A stretch of 64,000 nt of DNA, taken from contig CANSHD010000002.1 of assembly GCA_947646585.1 (NCBI GenBank), positions 136,997 to 200,996 of the forward strand, read 5' to 3'. The notes under the pieces were generated by a model, which was not told the DNA's origin, searched no databases, and worked only from the letters and a program-made list of their open reading frames with translations. Below are positions 18,624-61,372 of this stretch, in pieces (position 1 is the stretch's first letter; each line of letters opens with the position of its first letter). The stretch is from an uncultured Alphaproteobacteria bacterium (GTDB lineage Bacteria > Pseudomonadota > Alphaproteobacteria > Rs-D84). The position numbers and the translations under genes are program-made.

Positions 18624-19112
18624 ATGAAACCAAAACTTTTTATGTCGGTCATATTATGTTCGACCGCCGTTAATACATGTTACGCACTTGGTACCACAAA
18701 ACTGTGCTGTGATATGGTCCATGTGGAGGGGAGGCCATGTAAATGTTATGCAGACTCGTCCGGCAGTTGTGCGCACTGCTCTGTCAGTGGCGGTGGTTGT
18801 ACAGACTGTGACAGTACCGATTGGGCGCCGACCGGCACCGCCGGATATGAATCCAGAATCAACGCGCTGTGCATGCTTATGACCGGAAAGTGCAACAAAA
18901 CGACAGAATATCGGTGCGCCGCCGGGTATTATGGGAAAAGCATGAACGGAACGTCCGGGTGTACGCGCTGTCCGTCGTCGGGCGGCGTATATGGTACAAA
19001 TACGGCCGGCGAGAATACCGACATAACGTCGTGCTGTATCCCTGCGAACAGGACAATGACCGATACAAAGGGAACATTTACGTTTACCGATGAATGCTGT
19101 TATTCAAATTAA
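18624..19112 (+). CDS. Small secreted Cys-rich protein, family member A1 (GCC2/GCC3 or ephrin-receptor-like C-terminal module)
   Basis: Signal peptide MKPKLFMSVILCSTAVNTCYA. Conserved C-terminal EYRCAAGYYG..NGTSGCTRCPSSGGVYGT...C shared with five paralogs in the window. Confidence 0.7.
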   Translation: MKPKLFMSVILCSTAVNTCYALGTTKLCCDMVHVEGRPCKCYADSSGSCAHCSVSGGGCTDCDSTDWAPTGTAGYESRINALCMLMTGKCNKTTEYRCAAGYYGKSMNGTSGCTRCPSSGGVYGTNTAGENTDITSCCIPANRTMTDTKGTFTFTDECCYSN

Positions 19113-24003: not shown

Positions 24004-24029
24004 AAAAAACGCCATGCGGCGTTTTTTTA
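24004..24029. terminator. Bidirectional terminator
   Basis: aaaaaacgccatgcggcgttttttt. Confidence 0.6.
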
Positions 24030-24662
24030 ATTTTTGTAATAGCAGTCGCCGGTATAAGTGCCGGAGCCAGCGGCGTCACTGAACGCGGTTCCCGATGGCA
24101 GATAGCATGCGGTTATGGCCGTGCTGCCTGCGGCGGACGTGCCGTAAATGCCGCCGGATGCCGGACAGCGCGTACAGCCGGACGTGCCGTTTGACGTTGT
24201 GCCGTAATATCCCGCCGCACAGCGGTATTCCGTGCCGGTGGTTAACGTACCGTTGCAACTGCATTTCTTGACGGTGCGCTTTTCATATCCGGTACTGTGT
24301 GCCGTCCATGCGCCCGTGCTTGCGCCGCTGCAGCTTTTGCATTTCGCACAGCGGTTGTTTATACAGCCATATGATATACTGCCGCCACAGTCGCTGTCGG
24401 AATAGCAGCCGCATGTGAATGTAATTGTTTTGTTGAACTGTGCGTCAATACAGTTGCATGAATATGACCCTCCTTTGCCGCTGCCGCACATGAATGTGCC
24501 CAGGGTATCATCCCATGTCTCGTCCAGACAGGCGCCGGTATCGCATATGCAACTGCCGCTGCCACCGTCCGAGCATGGAATGTTATATCCGTCGTATGCG
24601 CTTGCGGTCGCATTTATACATATTGCGCCCAGCGCTCCGATAAACACTGCCTTTGTATTCAT
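24027..24662 (-). CDS. Secreted Cys-rich protein, family member B1 (211 aa)
   Basis: Signal peptide. C-terminal TEYRCAAGYYGTTSNGTSGCTRCPASGGIYGTSAAGSTAITACYLPSGTAFSDAAGSGTYTGDCYYKN, nearly identical to the C-terminus of 25860..26363. Confidence 0.7.
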   Translation of the reverse strand: MNTKAVFIGALGAICINATASAYDGYNIPCSDGGSGSCICDTGACLDETWDDTLGTFMCGSGKGGSYSCNCIDAQFNKTITFTCGCYSDSDCGGSISYGCINNRCAKCKSCSGASTGAWTAHSTGYEKRTVKKCSCNGTLTTGTEYRCAAGYYGTTSNGTSGCTRCPASGGIYGTSAAGSTAITACYLPSGTAFSDAAGSGTYTGDCYYKN

Positions 24663-25859: not shown

Positions 25860-26363
25860 ATGAAAAAATTAACAACATCGGTATTGCTGGTTTTCGCCGG
25901 TATGTTGGGCGATGCGCATGCTGAGTTTAGCTGCTGTGGCGGTGCCAATGTGCCGGTTGGTGCGAATCCGACATACGACAGCAGCTGTACAACCAAGGTC
26001 AGTGGCGAAACATTGTTTGATAATGCGGGATGCTGCGCCTCCGGTTCGATAACCAGTACGACAAATGGTGTCATATCGACCAGAACATGTACAACAAGAG
26101 CCAGTTATAACAGTTTAACGAATACGGTCAGTGCAATCTGTAGTTGCGGTACGGCAACATATAAATGTGCGGTTGGATATTATGGCAGTCCAAAGAATGC
26201 CTCATCGGGTTGTACGCGATGCCCGGCGTCGGGCGGTGTTTACGGTACCACGGCCGCGGCCGGCGCCACGTCAATAACCAAATGTTATCTGCCGTCCGGC
26301 ACGGCGTTCAGTGATACCGCCGGCAGTGGCGAATACACCGGAAACTGTTATTATGTTGAGTGA
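25860..26363 (+). CDS. Secreted Cys-rich protein, family member B2 (167 aa)
   Basis: Signal peptide MKKLTTSVLLVFAGMLGDAHA. C-terminal module conserved with B1. Confidence 0.7.
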   Translation: MKKLTTSVLLVFAGMLGDAHAEFSCCGGANVPVGANPTYDSSCTTKVSGETLFDNAGCCASGSITSTTNGVISTRTCTTRASYNSLTNTVSAICSCGTATYKCAVGYYGSPKNASSGCTRCPASGGVYGTTAAAGATSITKCYLPSGTAFSDTAGSGEYTGNCYYVE

Positions 26364-29742: not shown

Positions 29743-30036
29743 CTATGAATAGTGACAGTTTTCTGTCAGAACATAATTGCCGGTTGTGTCGCTGTATTCT
29801 CCGGCCGGCATATAGCATGCGCCGATATCGGTGCTGTTCTCGTTGTCACTGGTCGGAGAGCCGTGTACTTCGTTGCTGCCGTTTGGGCGCGGTGGCGGAC
29901 ATTGGCGGCATGTATTGGTATCCGTAAGATAGTACTTGCTTTTGCACTTTGTGTAATAATTTGTAAGTGTCACGCACTCGGCGATTGCGGTTGTCGGAAT
30001 GATGGTTGCAATAATTATACAATATATTGTTTTCAT
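29743..30036 (-). CDS. Small secreted Cys-rich protein (97 aa), distant member of the family
   Basis: Signal peptide. C-terminal CRQCPPPRPNG...GACYMPAGEYSDTTGNYVLTENCHYS echoes the family C-terminus. Confidence 0.5.
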   Translation of the reverse strand: MKTIYCIIIATIIPTTAIAECVTLTNYYTKCKSKYYLTDTNTCRQCPPPRPNGSNEVHGSPTSDNENSTDIGACYMPAGEYSDTTGNYVLTENCHYS

Positions 30037-40340: not shown

Positions 40341-41453
40341 ATGCGCGACGATTATTATTCTGAAAACTGGTCCCAGGCAACGGAAAAATTTTACAAATCC
40401 GCCATGGCGCACGGTGATTTGCGGTGGTGTGTGGCGGCAGGCCATTCCTTTGATATTCCATATGTTAAAATCGGCGACGGCGACAATCATATAGTGATTA
40501 ACTCCGGCATACATGGTCTGGAGGGATATTTCGGCAGTGCGGCGCAACTGATGTTTTTAAATGAGTTTGTGCGAAATTTGCCGCCGCGCGCTTTGGAGAA
40601 ATACACGATTTCATTGATTCATATCATCAACGGGTGGGGAATGGAAAACCGCATGCGCGAAGTGCGCGACGCATCCGGCGGTTTGGTGGATTTGAACCGT
40701 AATTTCGGAATTGATTTTACGCGTCCGGATGCCCTGCCCCGGAATTCAAAGTATGAACTGTCGCATGATTTGCTGGTATCGCGCCCGGATGCGGTTGCGA
40801 AAAAGAACGCGATAAAGGAGTTTCGGCGTCTGCATCTGCGTGACGGCGTATGGGACGCAATCAGTCACGGCCAGTACGCGCATCCGGACGGATTGTTTTA
40901 TGGCGGCGCCGCCCCGACGGTGGAAAGCCGCATGGCATTGGGCATTTATGATGAAATAATGGCGAACGGGGCGCGGTCGCTGACATCGATTGGGCTGCAT
41001 ACGGGACTTGGGCGGTTTGACCGGCGCCGCGGGCGTGTCAGCGCACAGTTGCTGGTATCGCATCCGTCGTCGCACCCGAACACAAAGTATTTTGAAAACA
41101 TGTTCCCGGGGACCTGTGTCGCGTCGGATGAAAACGCGGTGTCGGGGCCGACGCTGCTGGGCGATTTGGTCGATTGTCTTGAGGCGCGTTATGCGCCGCG
41201 CGGGATTCCGGTTTATACGGCGGATTATGAAATCGGAACCGGTGAATTTCCAATAATGTCCCCGATATACAAGCGCATGGATATGGGCGATGCGCGGTAT
41301 GACTTGCGACATTACGGGCGTATTAGTCACCAGACGCATCGCAATTTGACGGAAAGCTGGTATCCGTCGTCGCCGGTATGGCGTGCGTCGGCACTGGGCC
41401 GGGCGTATGTTTTGTTCACGGAAATGATTGACAATATGCGCCGCCAGAAATAA
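40341..41453 (+). CDS. M14-like zinc carboxypeptidase / DUF2817-like protein. It sits where tolB-pal would be expected.
   Basis: GIHGLEGYFG resembles the HxxE zinc-binding motif of the M14/AstE-AspA superfamily. Confidence 0.45.
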   Translation: MRDDYYSENWSQATEKFYKSAMAHGDLRWCVAAGHSFDIPYVKIGDGDNHIVINSGIHGLEGYFGSAAQLMFLNEFVRNLPPRALEKYTISLIHIINGWGMENRMREVRDASGGLVDLNRNFGIDFTRPDALPRNSKYELSHDLLVSRPDAVAKKNAIKEFRRLHLRDGVWDAISHGQYAHPDGLFYGGAAPTVESRMALGIYDEIMANGARSLTSIGLHTGLGRFDRRRGRVSAQLLVSHPSSHPNTKYFENMFPGTCVASDENAVSGPTLLGDLVDCLEARYAPRGIPVYTADYEIGTGEFPIMSPIYKRMDMGDARYDLRHYGRISHQTHRNLTESWYPSSPVWRASALGRAYVLFTEMIDNMRRQK

Positions 41454-41575
41454 TTCCCCCGCCATACGGCGGGATTTTTTTGTGTAATTATTACTGGATT
41501 GCCGCGTCGGCGCAGGCGCCTCCTCGCAATGACAATGGGGATACAGAATAAAACAACCGCCCCCGCAGGGGCGGT

Positions 41576-41907
41576 GTGCAGATACACTATAAGCCGGATT
41601 CTGTACTGCCGCGGGCCCAGTCTTTTCACAACCACGCCCGGGTAGCGAACATAATTAATCTGCATTTCGTGTTGCCACGAATGTCAAGCCTTCTACCCGC
41701 CCCCAATCCTGGGACTGGTCACAGGGGGCCTATTTGAAGTTGCTGCGCATAGAGATTGGCCGTTTCACTCGAACTAAATCGATTCGTCACTGTTCCTCTA
41801 ATCGTCGGGTCGCCCCGCCCGGTCATTAGCCGGTATGCCGTCCCATGCAGTCCGGACTTTCCTCCGACCCATAAGGCCGGCTATGTTCCGTGCATCTTAC
41901 GCGTGCA
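41576..41907 (-). ncRNA. rnpB: RNase P RNA (bacterial type A, apparently reduced P12 region), followed by a terminator at 41549-41575
   Basis: The minus strand reads GGAAAGTCCGGACTGCATGGGACGGCATACCGGCTAATGACCGGGCGGGGCGACCCGACG ... CAAATAGG ... GGGTAGAAGGCTTGA ... ACAGAATCCGGCTTA. This tracks the E. coli M1 RNA P4/P5/P15 consensus. The 3' flank is accgcccctgcgggggcggt followed by a T-run. Confidence 0.8.
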
Positions 41908-42024
41908 ATACTAACAGCAATAAAAAAAAATTCAAATAAATTTGCGCCGCCGATATATTTTTTTGCTTGAACCGTTTCCATGATTTTTTCTATGATTAGT
42001 ATCAGAGAAAAAAAGTGGGGAATT

Positions 42025-45000
42025 ATGTCCAAAATTATACGCGTTTTTGCGTGCTTGTTCACGTTGTTTTTTGTAGGCTCAGCATATGCGGCGGGATATA
42101 CCTGTAATGATTTAAAGAAATACACGTCGTGTTCGTCCGGGTATTATATGACCAAGGGCGGTGTTTATAACGGCACAGCCCAGGTTGGCAATGCCTGTAC
42201 GGCGTGTGCGTCGGGCTGTACGTGCGCCGGCGGAACCGCGGCGCCGGTATGCGGCAAGACGTGTGCGGCGGGAACTTATTGGAACGGCAGTGCGTGCGCG
42301 ACATGTCCCAACGGATATTACTGTCCCGGATTTTCAAATGTTCAAAACCCGGAGACAAATTACGGGCGCAACGCGTGCCCGACCGCAAACTCGACAACTG
42401 CGGCGGCATCGTCGGCTTACCCGGATGTGTTTTATCCATATACGTCGACATCGGGTTCGGTGGATAAAACCACAGCGCCGACACGCAATTCAATCGGTAA
42501 TCAATCCTGGAACAGTTCTGGATCCGCCATTACGGATTGTAAGGCATATTATGGATTTAGTGGCGCCGGCGGTTATTTCCAAGCGGATAATGTGCGCTAT
42601 AATACCTCGACCGGCAAATACGATAACTTCTCCGGCGCTGATATATATTACAGCAGTGCCGTGGCCGGTTATTACCTGTACACCAAGTACAGCGATACAT
42701 ATTGCAACACAGGCACAAACCGCATGTTGTATAGAAAAGCGGTCGCCTGCCCTGCCGGGTCTTATTGCCCGGGCGGAAGTGTTCCGCAATGTAGTACCGG
42801 TACGCATAACAACGAATGGGGGCGTAATACTTGTCCGGCGGGTAAGTATTGTCCAGCCAAGTCTTCGGCAGGCACAAACTGTGCCGCCGGAACGTACCGC
42901 AGCGCGACAGGCGGTACCGCCGCCAGCAGCTGTACGGCATGTGCGATAGGTTCTTATAGTTCGGCCGGGGCGACCGGGTGTACGGCGTGTACCGGTGGCA
43001 AGACGACAACCGCCACGGGCCAGTTGTCATGTAACGCGACATGTACAAACGCCACCGGAGCCAGCACATGGACCGCCGCATCATGGTCGGCCAACAGTGT
43101 GACAAACAAGTGCGCAATTAATGCATGCGCGACCGGATACACCCGTGGCGGCACGGCCAGCAGTACCGGAACCAGCTCTTACACATGTTCGGCGAACTGT
43201 AATGCGATTACATTGAACGCAACGCAAAACGGCGGCAGCGGCACCGCAACGACGCTGTATAAAAAGTCCGGCTCAACAACGTGGTACAGCAATAATGCCT
43301 GCTCTACTACGATAACCACCCTGTCGTCGCGCCCGACCAAGACGCACGCGACATATGCGGGACATTATAACACCCGCGCCGCATCCGGCGGGACGCAGTG
43401 CGTGACCGCGACGGGCGCGCTTAGCACCTCGACCTCTTGCAACGTAACGGGCGCAACCACTTTTTATCCGCAGTTTACATGTAATACGGGTTGGACCAAT
43501 GCGGGTACGCGCATTTCAGGGACATGTACGGCGACAACGAACACGATAACGCTGAACAAAAACGGCGGTACGGGTACTTGTGGCGGTCAAAGCGGCACAA
43601 CAAACGGCAGCACGACATGTACCACGGGCAGCACCAAGTCCCTGCCGACATGGGACAGTAGCAGCTGCAGCATAACCAACGGAAACGAGATATTTAAGGG
43701 CTGGTCCACCAGCAGCAGCGCAACCAGTGGTTCAACGTCCATAACATGTCCGACGGGCGCCGCGACATACTATGCCGCGTGGACGACGCCGACATGCAGT
43801 GCGACGAACGGAACATGCGCGATAACCACGCCCAGCAGTAATGCGCCGCGTGGGACGATAAGCTGCTCCATGGGATACAGCCAATCCGGTGGCACAAATC
43901 GCACAACCAGCTTTACCGTCACGGGTAGCGCGGGCGGTACCAGCGTGTCCGGGACATGTTATGCTGTGACCAGCACCGTATCGTTCAATCTGAACGGTGG
44001 CAGCGGCAACCAGCCGAACAATGTTACGGCCACATACGGCAGCAATATGCCGGCGCTTAGCACCAGTGCCAACCCGTCACGCACAGGATATACTTTCGGC
44101 GGTTGGTATGACACCAGCGCTGCAACCGGCGGAACCCAGTATTATAATACCAGCCGCGGTTCAGCGCGTACGTGGAACAAGACGGATGCCAGTGTGACGC
44201 TGTACGCGCGCTGGACCGCCAATACATTCACGGTTGTTTATAACCTGAACAATGGAACCGGGACGAAGCCGGCAAATAAAACTTGTACCTATAATAGCGC
44301 GTGTGCACTGGATGCCGGAACCGGTACGGGTTATTATCGTAACGGATATGTATTAAAGGGTTGGAGCACCACCAGCAGCGCAACGAGCGGCTCGTTCGAC
44401 GGCAAGAATTTAGCGGCCAGCGGCACTGTAAACGTGTATGCGGTATGGACGCCTTGCGGCGCCGGCACCGCCAAGGCCGCCGGCACCGCTGCGGCAACCA
44501 CATGTACGACCTGTGCGGCGGGTACATATACAAGCACAACGGCTCAGTCCAGCTGTGCGGTATGCAGTGGCAATACATATAACGCAGAAACAGGCAAGAC
44601 ATCTTGTAGCGCATGTCCAGATGGATACGGCATCAGTGGCACGGCGGCCGCAGACCATGATGCCAAGGGCGACTGTAAGATTAGCTGCTCGGGCGGTAAT
44701 CGTGTTGCGACATCTGACGCAAAGTGCACGACCAGTGCCGGAACCGGATACTATATTGCAAATCATACGGTATCTGCAGGCACTACGTCACCGGCGGCAA
44801 CGCAGTGCCCGGTCGGATATCGTGACGGCGCGGCGACAGATGACCAGGGCAAGTGTGTAATGAACGTTGTAAAGGGTAAGTACGTTGCCAAAGCTAATGA
44901 TGAAGCGGCAACCAAGTGTGCGGCTGGCACGGCAAGGACGGCGCATACTGTGACATATGGTAAAACATCGTCATGCAGTGCATGTACGGGGCGTACCAAG

Positions 45001-46248
45001 TGGAGTGCGGAAGGGGCTGAGACCTGCAGCACGGTGTCAAATGGGTACTATACTACGGGTTGCACGAATAACAACAACTGTACCGGCCAGTCACAGTGTA
45101 CAGGCGCAACATACTGCAGTGGGGGTGTTCAGAACAATTGTCCGGCGGCGGAAAGCACCTGGACCCTGGGGACGGGAACCGGTTGGTCGGCGGTCACCAG
45201 CTGCTTTGAAACAAAGGCGGCCACAGCGGTCAGCACATATTGCAGCGAGGGCCAGTTGAAGAAAAATGCGACCAACACGACAACATGGGGCGCGGCGACC
45301 ATATCAAGTGCCTTTAAGGCAAAGGCGGGTTCGATAGTGTCCGGTCAGACATGTACGCAGTGTACCGGCGCGACATACAGTGCGGGTGGCACGGTGACGG
45401 AATGCGCCGCCTGTCCGACAGGGTATGCGTCAAACACAACGGCGGGCAAGACAGTCGTCGGCCAGTGCCAGGCGTCATGTGCGGCGGGATATGCGGTACA
45501 GACTGCGAACGAGGCCTGCAAGATAGTCGCCAGCGGTTATCAGACCGGCACTCACGTCGTCAGCTATGGTTCCAAGACTCCGACGGCGGCGGACAGCACC
45601 AGCCCGGCGGCGGGAACATGGTACAGCTGTCTGACGAATTATAGCGCGTCCGGCACGGCGGCCACAGACCATGACGCGCGCAGCGACTGTAAAATAAGCT
45701 GCGGCGCCGGTACACGGATTGCGTCCGCGAACGCGACCAGCTGCACCACCCCCAGCGGGAACTGGTATGTCGGCGCGCACAGCGTCGCGGCAGGCAGCGC
45801 GTCGTCGGTCAGCAGCTGTCTGACGAACTATACAATTGGCGGTAGCGCGGCAACGGACCACGATGCGGCGGCGGATTGCAAGATAAGATGTGGCGGCGGT
45901 GCGTATGTTGCCAAGGCAAACGATACGTCCTGTACGAATGTCGGTGCGGGATACTGGGCGGCGGCCTCGACCGTGTCGCAGGGAAGTGCCGGCAGTCGTA
46001 CGGCATGCGCGTCGGGTCTGACGACAATCGGGTACGGTGCGGGCGCGGACGAGGCGGCGGATTGCGGTCATATCCTGCATCTGGGCGACAGCAAGCTGTA
46101 TCTGCGCAGTACGAAAAAGACCACGCCGTCGTTGAATGTAAAGATTGGCGACAGCACCTTCTATGGCAACATGAGTACGGCGACCAAGGGCAAGCTGCGC
46201 GTCAAGAAAGACAACACTACCTACAGTGTTCACGACGACAGCATGTAA
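42025..46248 (+). CDS. Giant secreted Cys-rich protein (about 1400 aa) with tandem CxxC...GxY (GCC2/GCC3 or ephrin-receptor-like) repeats and Listeria-Bacteroides (Flg_new) repeats
   Basis: Signal peptide MSKIIRVFACLFTLFFVGSAYA. Many repeats of the form C.AGTY....G....C..C. The segments TGYTFGGWYDTSAATGG...VTLYARWT and YVLKGWSTTSS...VNVYAVWT match the Flg_new pattern. Confidence 0.75.
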   Translation: MSKIIRVFACLFTLFFVGSAYAAGYTCNDLKKYTSCSSGYYMTKGGVYNGTAQVGNACTACASGCTCAGGTAAPVCGKTCAAGTYWNGSACATCPNGYYCPGFSNVQNPETNYGRNACPTANSTTAAASSAYPDVFYPYTSTSGSVDKTTAPTRNSIGNQSWNSSGSAITDCKAYYGFSGAGGYFQADNVRYNTSTGKYDNFSGADIYYSSAVAGYYLYTKYSDTYCNTGTNRMLYRKAVACPAGSYCPGGSVPQCSTGTHNNEWGRNTCPAGKYCPAKSSAGTNCAAGTYRSATGGTAASSCTACAIGSYSSAGATGCTACTGGKTTTATGQLSCNATCTNATGASTWTAASWSANSVTNKCAINACATGYTRGGTASSTGTSSYTCSANCNAITLNATQNGGSGTATTLYKKSGSTTWYSNNACSTTITTLSSRPTKTHATYAGHYNTRAASGGTQCVTATGALSTSTSCNVTGATTFYPQFTCNTGWTNAGTRISGTCTATTNTITLNKNGGTGTCGGQSGTTNGSTTCTTGSTKSLPTWDSSSCSITNGNEIFKGWSTSSSATSGSTSITCPTGAATYYAAWTTPTCSATNGTCAITTPSSNAPRGTISCSMGYSQSGGTNRTTSFTVTGSAGGTSVSGTCYAVTSTVSFNLNGGSGNQPNNVTATYGSNMPALSTSANPSRTGYTFGGWYDTSAATGGTQYYNTSRGSARTWNKTDASVTLYARWTANTFTVVYNLNNGTGTKPANKTCTYNSACALDAGTGTGYYRNGYVLKGWSTTSSATSGSFDGKNLAASGTVNVYAVWTPCGAGTAKAAGTAAATTCTTCAAGTYTSTTAQSSCAVCSGNTYNAETGKTSCSACPDGYGISGTAAADHDAKGDCKISCSGGNRVATSDAKCTTSAGTGYYIANHTVSAGTTSPAATQCPVGYRDGAATDDQGKCVMNVVKGKYVAKANDEAATKCAAGTARTAHTVTYGKTSSCSACTGRTKWSAEGAETCSTVSNGYYTTGCTNNNNCTGQSQCTGATYCSGGVQNNCPAAESTWTLGTGTGWSAVTSCFETKAATAVSTYCSEGQLKKNATNTTTWGAATISSAFKAKAGSIVSGQTCTQCTGATYSAGGTVTECAACPTGYASNTTAGKTVVGQCQASCAAGYAVQTANEACKIVASGYQTGTHVVSYGSKTPTAADSTSPAAGTWYSCLTNYSASGTAATDHDARSDCKISCGAGTRIASANATSCTTPSGNWYVGAHSVAAGSASSVSSCLTNYTIGGSAATDHDAAADCKIRCGGGAYVAKANDTSCTNVGAGYWAAASTVSQGSAGSRTACASGLTTIGYGAGADEAADCGHILHLGDSKLYLRSTKKTTPSLNVKIGDSTFYGNMSTATKGKLRVKKDNTTYSVHDDSM

Positions 46249-46249
46249 A

Positions 46250-46278
46250 AGAAAACGCCCGAAACGGGCGTTTTTTAT
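46250..46278. terminator. Bidirectional terminator
   Basis: aaaacgcccgaaacgggcgtttttt. Confidence 0.7.
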
Positions 46279-46297: not shown

Positions 46298-46513
46298 TTA
46301 TTTACCGGCACCCTGGCGGCGTGCCGCGGCCAGTGCCCGGCGCAGTGATTCTTCGGCGATTTGGCGTATTTTGGGCGCAAATGTGCGCATGTTCATGGTG
46401 TCGGCCACGCTGTCGGCGAAAAGTCTGGATATATATTCGATTTGGGTCGGCGCAACTACGAAAATGTCGCTGGTTATGTCGGAAGTATTTAGCTGCTGTA
46501 TAGGTTCTTTCAT
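46298..46513 (-). CDS. Small hypothetical protein (71 aa), divergent from secA
   Basis: Strong RBS ggggagga. Starts MKEPIQQLNTSDITSDIFVV... Confidence 0.4.
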   Translation of the reverse strand: MKEPIQQLNTSDITSDIFVVAPTQIEYISRLFADSVADTMNMRTFAPKIRQIAEESLRRALAAARRQGAGK

Positions 46514-46651
46514 AATAATCCTCCCCTGTTGGTATAATTTTCCTATAATTGCCCCTTGCATGCGTGCCTTGTGTTCATTATATCATAAAGTGCCTTGACC
46601 GCAAGGCGCAAAATTGCTATCGTCTGGCAGATAATAGAAGGAAAAACAAAC

Positions 46652-60865: not shown

Positions 60866-61372
60866 ATGAGATTAAAACTTTTTCTGCCGGTCATATTGTG
60901 TTTGACCGTGTTTAACCATGCCATGGGTGCCACAAGTGTATGTTGCGACCAAAAAGTTATAGATGGGCAGCCTTGCCAATGCTATTCTGATGCGACCGGC
61001 AGCTGTGCTGGCTGCAGTAGTGCATCAGGGAGTGGTTGCACAAACTGTACCGGTACGGATTGGACGCCGGCCAGTACCACCGGGTACGAGTCTAGAAAAA
61101 AAGCGATATGTATGACGGGAAGCTGCTCTCAGTTACTTGAGTTTAGGTGTTCCGCGGGCTATTATGGCGAAAGTACTAATGGAACGTCTGGTTGTACACG
61201 GTGTCCAAGGCTTCTTGGTAAAAGTTTTTGGGTGTATGGTATTTCGCCGGCCGGTGCCGCTGCAATAACACAGTGCTATTTCCCAAAGGGCACAACAAAT
61301 GACACCGGCCCCTTGGACCAAAGTGGGACATATGTTTTTACTGCTGATTGTTATTACAACGGCGGGCTTTGA
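60866..61372 (+). CDS. Secreted Cys-rich protein, family member A2 (168 aa)
   Basis: Aligns along its full length with A1 (18624..19112). The conserved C-terminal module carries an RLLGKSFW insertion. Confidence 0.7.
   Translation: MRLKLFLPVILCLTVFNHAMGATSVCCDQKVIDGQPCQCYSDATGSCAGCSSASGSGCTNCTGTDWTPASTTGYESRKKAICMTGSCSQLLEFRCSAGYYGESTNGTSGCTRCPRLLGKSFWVYGISPAGAAAITQCYFPKGTTNDTGPLDQSGTYVFTADCYYNGGL

Follow-up and report, generated by a model that had tools for sequence, protein, structure and literature searches.

A giant Sec-exported, Cys-rich repeat protein with conserved ends and a variable middle in a gut alphaproteobacterium of the order Rs-D84

The subject of this study is a giant gene found in 64,000 nucleotides of DNA (here called the window) from an uncultured alphaproteobacterium, assembly GCA_947646585.1, contig CANSHD010000002.1. 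The gene occupies positions 42025..46248 (+) of the window, and its 1407-amino acid (AA) product, referred to below as the giant, is a real exported Cys-rich repeat protein of a lineage-specific family. These proteins keep their ends, whereas the middle part can be dispensed with and undergoes rapid gain, loss and exchange of modules. Our best reading, to which we give a probability of about 60%, is that the giant would be a Sec-exported, variable, modular stalk or adhesin on the surface of a bacterium that depends on partners.

The giant gene and its modular product

An earlier, sequence-only reading of this DNA described a secreted protein of about 1400 AA with a signal peptide, and our results bear out both points. 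The reading frame runs without interruption from 41980 to 46248 (+) of the 64-kb window. As homologues all start with MS(K/R), the ATG at 42025 was taken as the start codon, and an identical 1407-AA product is recorded in NCBI and ENA on a contig of 270,857 bp; its sequence is present in the cluster table, and a contig look-up for the exact product came back empty. The first 22 residues (42025..42090, +) form a signal peptide of the signal peptidase I type, MSKIIRVFACLFTLFFVGSAYA, cleaved before AG, and this is the sole hydrophobic stretch of the protein: hydrophobicity (KD19) exceeds 1.2 solely at residues 1-9, and no second hydrophobic segment was seen. The cleavage site, AxA-AGY(S/T)C, is kept in homologues, and the Cys at position 10, inside the hydrophobic core, is not kept, indicative of a signal peptidase I signal and not of a lipobox. 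The composition is dominated by Thr (17%), Ala (14%), Gly (12%), and Ser (12%), which make up 55% of the protein, and 86 residues (6.1%) are Cys.

Comparison of the gene with its closest ortholog gave a ratio of nonsynonymous to synonymous substitution rates (dN/dS) of 0.16, that is, purifying selection, and on this ground a chance open reading frame (ORF) was dismissed. Intact homologues were found by the hundreds in independent assemblies, and a 1768-AA relative with the same ends is present in an independent Logan assembly. The DNA repeats inside the gene do not exceed 83 nt and are 61-95% identical, mostly 61-86%, and Tandem Repeats Finder (TRF) reported just two short low-scoring arrays with periods of 12 and 9 nt. 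A collapsed-repeat artefact of assembly, raised in the sequence-only reading as a way in which the gene could prove false, was thus rejected as unlikely, the internal repeats being short and too diverged to collapse and the TRF arrays trivial. Self-BLAST of the protein with composition correction gave zero internal matches; the repeat modules described here were delimited from Pfam, DNA repeats, and inspection.

From its N- to its C-terminal end the giant is predicted to consist of the signal peptide, an N-cap, a Tyr-rich β domain, Cys-rich rods, four Flg_new repeats, more rods with three DHDA modules, and a tail. The N-terminal Cys-rich region (AA 23-117, 42091..42375, +) contains 11 Cys, and its first ~60 AA are the N-cap. 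This element follows the pattern AGY(S/T)CxxYKKYTSCxxGYY...GNxCxxC...CxGGT throughout the family, as judged from 36 diverse aligned homologues, and reads AGYTCxxxKKYTSCxxGYYMT...GNACxxC...CAGGTAxP in the giant. The Tyr-rich, Cys-poor globular β domain of ~125 AA comes next (AA 118-245, 42376..42759, +), followed by TNFR/ephrin-receptor-like Cys-rich modules with 15 Cys (AA 246-392, 42760..43200, +), to which Pfam gave weak matches (NCD3G, E = 0.0023; Ephrin_rec_like, 14.6 bits; TNFR_c6, E = 0.43).

The sequence-only reading had placed at least two Flg_new (Listeria-Bacteroides) repeats in the middle of the protein. We found three by Pfam and one degenerate copy, and both whole-protein scores exceeded their cut-offs (PF09479, 51.5 bits vs. 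27, in three stretches; TIGR02543, List_Bact_rpt, 35.5 bits vs. 20.95). In a fragment scan each of the three Pfam copies covered nearly the full profile, in keeping with tandem repeats of ~65-80 AA. Repeat 1 (AA 393-487, 43201..43485, +) is degenerate and lies below Pfam detection, sharing its core motif with repeat 3 (BLASTP E = 2e-6). Repeat 2 (AA 507-584, 43543..43776, +) matches PF09479 with 16.3 bits over profile positions 2-64 of 65. The best copy is repeat 3 (AA 651-728, 43975..44208, +; 46.8 bits, E = 3.2e-12), with the TIGR02543 match at AA 684-734, and repeat 4 (AA 735-806, 44227..44442, +) scores 25.6 bits (E = 1.3e-5).

Further Cys modules had been described behind the Flg_new block, in agreement with the 39 Cys that we counted in AA 811-1333. 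Of these, 30 belong to a second Cys-rich array (AA 811-1201, 44455..45627, +). In the closest ortholog, part of this array has been replaced or is rich in indels. The array contains the best Ephrin_rec_like module of the giant (AA 833-867, nt 44521-44625), which scored 31.2 bits (E = 2e-7) when AA 808-1010 were scanned as a fragment; over the whole protein PF07699 reached 23.8 bits, marginally above its gathering score of 23.1. The ephrin-receptor-like modules named in the sequence-only reading were therefore recovered, and PF07699 is precomputed on 11 of the 120 homologues listed. As to their number, the "dozens" of C-x2-C/GTY repeats claimed for the N-terminal third came down to 4 CxxC motifs before AA 470 and 10 in the entire protein, together with 11 G-x-[YW] motifs overall.

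The DHDA module, about 63 AA long, carries the motif SGTAAxDHDAxxDCKIxC, and its copies were aligned by eye. Copy 1 spans AA 866-935 (44620..44829, +) and includes the reference copy of the DNA repeat D1 (44638-44720). Two tandem modules, AA 1202-1270 and AA 1265-1333, lie at 45628..46023 (+), with D1 copies at 45652-45734 (73% identical) and 45841-45923 (61% identical), 189 nt apart. For the Cys-rich module upstream of the tail the AlphaFold2 (AF2) model gave a predicted local distance difference test (pLDDT) score of 38-72, and Foldseek returned a faint match to CD40 (E = 8.7).

Conserved domains and the family they define

The giant ends in a family-defining C-terminal tail (AA 1334-1407, 46024..46245, +), in which the linker GLTTIGYGAGADEAxDCG leads into a six-strand β domain (AA 1347-1403). 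No other part of the family is as well conserved: alignment A1 of the tail has 24 invariant columns, and its motif is DCGRxLxxGxxKxYLRSxKKTTPSLNV...TTYSVxDDS. AF2 folded it into a compact structure, with six strands of 5-8 residues in ~60 AA and a pLDDT of 88-92, and the hidden Markov model (HMM) of the tail scored 122 bits on the ORF of the window. The tail was unmatched in Pfam (best E 0.015), in the PDB profile search (best E 0.29), and in Foldseek against PDB (best E 3.1), and a sequence search of the whole giant against solved structures gave nothing significant. Similarity to glucansucrase (Glucosyltransferase-S) chains, at E 0.3-1.3, and to Pfam GH70, at E 0.015, was not significant and was set aside as a lead only; the region of the glucansucrases that resembles the tail is presumably that of the YG glucan-binding repeats.

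The Tyr-rich domain occurs in 108 collected family proteins, in 1-3 copies and at variable positions. For AA 108-262 of the giant AF2 predicted seven β strands, with a mean pLDDT of 89 and a predicted template modelling (pTM) score of 0.82. This domain was likewise unmatched, with best E values of 0.066 in Pfam, 0.16 in the PDB profile search, 8.9 in Foldseek against PDB, and 3.2 against BFVD. Judged from sequence comparisons and predicted structures, the two conserved β domains, the tail and the Tyr-rich domain, resemble nothing described, and we infer that the latter is a candidate ligand-binding head. A phage origin of either domain was rejected, as tblastn gave no match in phage genomes.

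An exhaustive profile search detected the tail in 605 cluster representatives, 408 of them at E <= 1e-10, in proteins of 109-6644 AA. Among these representatives it nearly always sits at the extreme C-terminus, as it does in the majority of the top 150, and of 98 domain hits in reference-genome loci 71 are C-terminal. As seen by eye, it closes proteins with jelly-roll/carbohydrate-binding or discoidin-type parts, such as P0309 and P0253, the latter a complete protein with a signal peptide of its own. The same inspection gave a carbohydrate-binding, discoidin or lectin look to stretches of P0253, P0272, P0309, and P0351 and to stretches behind the tail in loci L051 and L054, one of these examples carrying the motif YIEGTGTQWINTG. 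A Cys domain of the form ...G.CWCR(I/M)..P....W(V/T)(F/Y)......C...C...CA.N.... stands behind the tail in L035, L036, P0048, and P0354. The same domain was also noted in a 244-AA stand-alone secreted protein (L007, 14084-14818, -), which contains an internal tail-like domain (HMM E = 5.6e-7). Another large secreted protein family of Enterousia (L064 4798-8652, L072 4936-8484, L057 9421-11202, and L061 11412-13193) has, by eye only, a tail-like stretch near its N-terminus (AA ~85-150); with HMM E values of 0.13-20 this candidate was rejected.

Homologues of the giant numbered 475 at E < 1e-5, and the 120 listed span 1075-2455 AA with the same cap and tail. We refer to these proteins as the cap-and-tail family, defined by a signal peptide, the N-cap, the C-terminal β domain, and a slot between rnpB and secA, all of which were found for the giant. 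Neither the three conserved parts (N-cap, Tyr-rich domain, and C-terminal β domain) nor the conserved gene order with rnpB and secA had been noticed in the sequence-only reading. A scan for the tail across one genome per GTDB species returned 95 loci, almost all bearing the labels uncultured Alphaproteobacteria, Candidatus Enterousia or "Rickettsiales", in metagenome-assembled genomes (MAGs) from gut, faeces or rumen. The genomes carry 2-3 paralogs each, dispersed beyond the rnpB/secA slot. A literature search gave nothing on the cap-and-tail family. Giant modular surface or adhesin-like proteins are a known kind as such; the family of the giant is specific to its clade, is undescribed, and has two conserved domains that are uncharacterised.

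The slot itself is well conserved. The order TolA-like gene, rnpB (-), giant gene (+), small ORF (-), and secA (+) was seen in ~38 of 80 loci, and of 9 related loci checked, 8 have a minus-strand rnpB directly 5′ of the giant gene. In the closest relative, L001, SecA is 99.1% identical to that of the window (secA dN 0.005, dN/dS 0.02). Its giant measures 1896 AA vs. 1407 AA, and the shared blocks are 78-94% identical. Three stretches set the two proteins apart: a block of 80 AA, another of ~200 AA made up of additional Flg_new-like units, and a segment of 290/480 AA that has been replaced. The dN of the giant gene, 0.065, is 13 times that of secA. Among the related loci, proteins in the slot range from 153 AA to ~2750 AA, the latter in complete syntenic orthologs. 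The shortest, P0209 (L081, 4001-4462), consists of signal peptide, cap, and tail only. It stands in this very slot in another genome, with the small ORF and secA downstream of it, so that the whole repeat array is gone and both ends are retained. This protein came to light in searches of a protein database with the short profiles A1 and A3, which otherwise returned mostly contig-end fragments or a single match and were uninformative on architecture.

The host is a gut alphaproteobacterium and a close relative of Candidatus Enterousia, in the GTDB order Rs-D84. A weak GcrA-like match in the window (83.5 bits vs. a cut-off of 280) and the taxon labels of the tail loci together point to an alphaproteobacterium, and SecA identity between the window and the related loci is 81-99%. 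LpxA and LpxB of the window exceed their cut-offs, indicative of a diderm that makes lipid A, and TolQ and a TonB/TolA-like protein are encoded nearby. Genomes of Rs-D84/Enterousia are smaller than 1 Mb and lack respiration, most biosynthesis, and standard transporters (PMC12306168). An obligate symbiont or parasite lifestyle was proposed for Rs-D84, this dependence on a partner being deduced from the metabolic gaps (PMC12306168). The same paper mentions "hypothetical membrane-bound proteins"; the cap-and-tail family is undescribed there, and no contact molecule is named.

Some records that carry the family are labelled Muribaculaceae or Bacteroides fragilis (L049, which is OZ246409.1, a chromosome of 716,531 bp; L034; and the protein P0108). 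These labels are probably taxonomic misassignments. L049 has the same rnpB/giant/secA synteny and a SecA 82% identical to that of the window, and it would then be a 0.72-Mb chromosome of the Rs-D84 type.

Comparison with known systems and competing readings

Proteins with Listeria-Bacteroides repeats include the InlB B-repeat and many surface proteins of Bacteroides and Treponema. The giant is similarly secreted and carries 3 + 1 degenerate repeats in tandem that score over both cut-offs. In contrast to such surface proteins, its repeats make up ~30% of the protein, lie between Cys-rich rods, in several cases contain Cys themselves, and come from an alphaproteobacterial host; LPXTG, GW modules, the C-terminal domain (CTD) of the type IX secretion system (T9SS), and a lipobox are all missing from the giant. 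With the ephrin-receptor/TNFR-like modules (PF07699, PF00020, and the ELAPOR1-like PF23091) it shares short modules with CxxC and G-x-Y. Its score is marginal, however, these families are mainly eukaryotic ectodomains, and the giant has no kinase, transmembrane segment or death domain. Variant-specific surface proteins (VSPs) of Giardia are Cys-rich (~12% Cys), with a C-terminal transmembrane helix, a variable body, and conserved termini. The giant resembles them in its CxxC motifs, its Thr/Ser/Gly/Ala-rich composition, its variable body with conserved termini, and its membership in a multi-copy family. The likeness is compositional only, as the giant has no Pfam VSP match, no C-terminal transmembrane helix, 6% Cys, and bacterial synteny.

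Among export systems, the cargo of the T9SS of Bacteroidota follows the same logic, with a Sec signal, diverse cargo, and a small conserved C-terminal β domain across a lineage. This is a functional analogy only: the giant has no TIGR04183/PF18962 match, its lineage is alphaproteobacterial, its tail has ~60 AA and six strands and is sometimes non-terminal, and no secretion machinery was identified. Unlike type V autotransporters, classical or trimeric, the giant has neither a PF03797 barrel nor a YadA-type PF03895 anchor (Pfam, E <= 1, whole protein and tail). RTX adhesins such as LapA, SiiE, and MpIBP have RTX repeats and no Sec signal, and Sca proteins, borne by host-dependent alphaproteobacteria with small genomes (Rickettsiales), end in a β-barrel of ~300 AA. 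The giant is a large, repetitive, length-variable protein like these type I secretion system (T1SS) adhesins and Sca autotransporters, which are all surface proteins. It differs from the former by its Sec-type signal and the lack of any RTX/HemolysinCabind match, and from the latter by the lack of a C-terminal β-barrel. The bacterial lipobox, [LVI][ASTVI][GAS]C, is absent as well, an AxA-AG site standing in its place.

A surface adhesin or host-interaction role had been named as likely in the sequence-only reading. This is the most reasonable reading of the binding-type repeats of the protein, the absence of an enzyme domain, the fast modular evolution, and the reduced-genome, presumably partner-dependent host, and we infer the adhesin function itself from these features. 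In the scheme that we favor, the giant would be exported by Sec and its disulfides would then form in the periplasm. The tail may act as a common sorting or anchoring module that brings the proteins to the outer surface and holds them there. On that surface the protein would form an extended, disulfide-stabilised stalk, with the variable array setting its reach and surface variability, and the Tyr-rich domain and Flg_new units could bind the surface of a partner, be it a partner cell, host mucus or epithelium. By analogy with the T9SS CTD or Gram-positive wall anchors, tail and N-cap may even constitute an unrecognised surface sorting and anchoring system specific to the Rs-D84 lineage, and the Tyr-rich domain a new partner-binding fold; this extension is tentative. 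If it were true, the cap-and-tail proteins would serve for attachment in an epibiotic or parasitic way of life, for which metabolic gaps have until now been the sole evidence.

Several observations weigh against the stalk or adhesin. The signal peptide was assigned by inspection. No outer-membrane translocation route was found for the giant; an autotransporter barrel, a T9SS CTD, an RTX/T1SS signal, and a lipobox were all absent in Pfam/NCBIfam scans and inspection. No conserved partner gene lies beside the orthologs and paralogs in 80 related loci: a dedicated partner or secretion gene was dropped from consideration after clustering all ORFs of these loci, where only housekeeping synteny recurs. 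The mature giant has 85 Cys, and the oxidation of so many Cys poses a difficulty in an anaerobe without a respiratory chain; the window revealed no Dsb gene. In a minority of members the tail is non-terminal and followed by 100-300 AA (a "CWCR" Cys domain, a domain resembling carbohydrate-binding modules, or a lectin-like domain), which weakens a strict "C-terminal signal" model. As for the rapid divergence, the synonymous rate (dS) is also elevated, at 0.41 for the giant gene vs. 0.21 for secA, which could reflect recombination among modules. The dN/dS value, 0.16, is a sign of relaxed or rapid evolution and no demonstration of positive selection.

The conserved termini would also suit a self-assembling, S-layer-like coat, a protective or spacing layer on the outer membrane, in which cap and tail would mediate self-assembly or head-to-tail polymerisation instead of attachment to a foreign partner and the variable middle would mainly serve antigenic or phage-receptor variation. 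Such a coat agrees with the clade-wide presence of one copy at a conserved housekeeping locus, with a middle dispensable to the point of the 153-AA P0209 in the same slot, with a Thr/Ser/Gly/Ala/Asn-rich composition typical of coat proteins, and with several paralogs per genome. Pfam and NCBIfam gave no S-layer/SLH-type domain, however, and the Flg_new repeats, along with the by-eye carbohydrate-binding and discoidin-like domains of tail-bearing relatives, point to external ligands, so we regard a coat as unlikely. Still less probable to us is a released soluble effector, which would leave the producer for the medium or for a partner cell, on or in which it would act, for example by binding host receptors through its eukaryote-like Cys-rich modules. 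The signal peptide, the lack of a membrane anchor, lipobox or barrel (hydropathy revealed no anchor in the giant beyond the signal peptide), and the ephrin-receptor/TNFR/ELAPOR-like modules, mostly of an eukaryotic extracellular type, are in line with release. Conservation of the tail across paralogs and species fits a component of the producer cell better than a variable external target, surface stalks typically show such extreme variation in length at a single locus, and Pfam and NCBIfam scans of the giant found no enzymatic or toxin domain. A periplasmic or non-functional product, whether of a decaying gene or of a collapsed-repeat assembly, seems very improbable. The missing outer-membrane route, the metagenomic origin of the assembly, and the repetitive, low-complexity sequence could be held in its favor, but the 4.2-kb frame is intact with a dN/dS of 0.16, the homologues from independent assemblies are intact in their hundreds, the Logan relative of 1768 AA has the same ends, and the internal repeats are too diverged to have collapsed.

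Under the stalk or adhesin reading, the family is plausible as a molecular handle, read from sequence, on partner contact by gut alphaproteobacteria with reduced genomes. Rs-D84/Candidatus Enterousia are widespread in human and animal guts, and the cap-and-tail family offers a concrete candidate for this contact. The grounds are several copies of 3-20 kb per genome, one of them at a fixed housekeeping locus, far faster evolution than that of neighbours, and binding-type modules. Owing to its conservation, the tail is also a simple marker in sequence by which the predicted surface proteome of this clade can be listed.

Flanking elements and other genes of the window

The gene order around the giant is ruvB, ybgC-like, tolQ, tolR-like, TonB/TolA-like, DUF2817, rnpB, giant, 87-AA ORF, secA, dnaE, and rsmH. 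Class A bacterial RNase P RNA, rnpB, was located at 41574..41899 (-) with 180.8 bits for Rfam RF00010 vs. a gathering score of 100. The statement that the giant gene lies "immediately downstream of rnpB" had to be corrected: rnpB is encoded by the minus strand and the two genes diverge, their spacer measuring 125 nt from the 5′ end of rnpB to the ATG of the giant gene. The spacer contains two overlapping sigma-70-like promoter matches (41931..41996, +; TTCAAA-17-TATATT and TTGAAC-18-TATGAT), which are consensus matches only, and a purine-rich GGGGA (42017-42021, +) was read from the sequence directly 5′ of the ATG.

Downstream, a terminator scan detected a GC-rich palindromic hairpin between runs of A and T (46252..46274), with a 10-bp stem AAAACGCCCG...CGGGCGTTTT. 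It is probably a bidirectional terminator shared by the giant gene and the convergent small ORF. With promoter-like sites of its own and the terminator hairpin, the giant gene appears to be a stand-alone, monocistronic unit. The small ORF (46298..46561, -), located between the giant gene and secA, encodes 87 AA with no Pfam match; this syntenic neighbour adjoins secA in ~40 related loci, with 49-100% identity by tblastn. The DUF2817 (M14-like) gene at 40341-41453 (+), between the TolA-like gene and rnpB, is missing in the closest relative, L001 (SecA 99% identical), and present in the more distant L010, which marks a recent gene gain or loss beside the giant gene.

The giant had also been presented as the "flagship" of a Cys-rich family in the window, a view that our searches do not support. 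Five small Cys-rich secreted proteins of 97-211 AA are encoded at 18624-19112 (+), 24027-24662 (-), 25860-26363 (+), 29743-30036 (-), and 60866-61372 (+). These are homologous to one another (BLAST E 6e-5 to 1e-51) and have in common a C-terminal motif of ~65 AA, C.AGYYG...SGCTRCP..GG.YGT...CY.P.G...D..G...CYY. Pfam gave no match for the four that were scanned (all but 29743-30036). Their kinship with the giant was rejected, as BLAST gave no match at E <= 0.01 and the HMM domain scores on the giant were all negative.

Two further regions of the window were noted. At 9184-15240 (-), four or five consecutive genes encode proteins with signal peptides and almost no Pfam matches; GH108 lysozyme-like and PG_binding_3 domains form the end of one product (9184-10854), and another has a sub-threshold SseC-like match. 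Adjoining the GcrA-like gene, 16278-18335 (+) encodes a 685-AA protein with no Pfam match. Its N-terminal region is coiled-coil-like, a long low-complexity stretch is rich in Pro, Ala, and Glu, and the protein further has a single transmembrane segment and, at the C-terminus, a short cluster of Cys.

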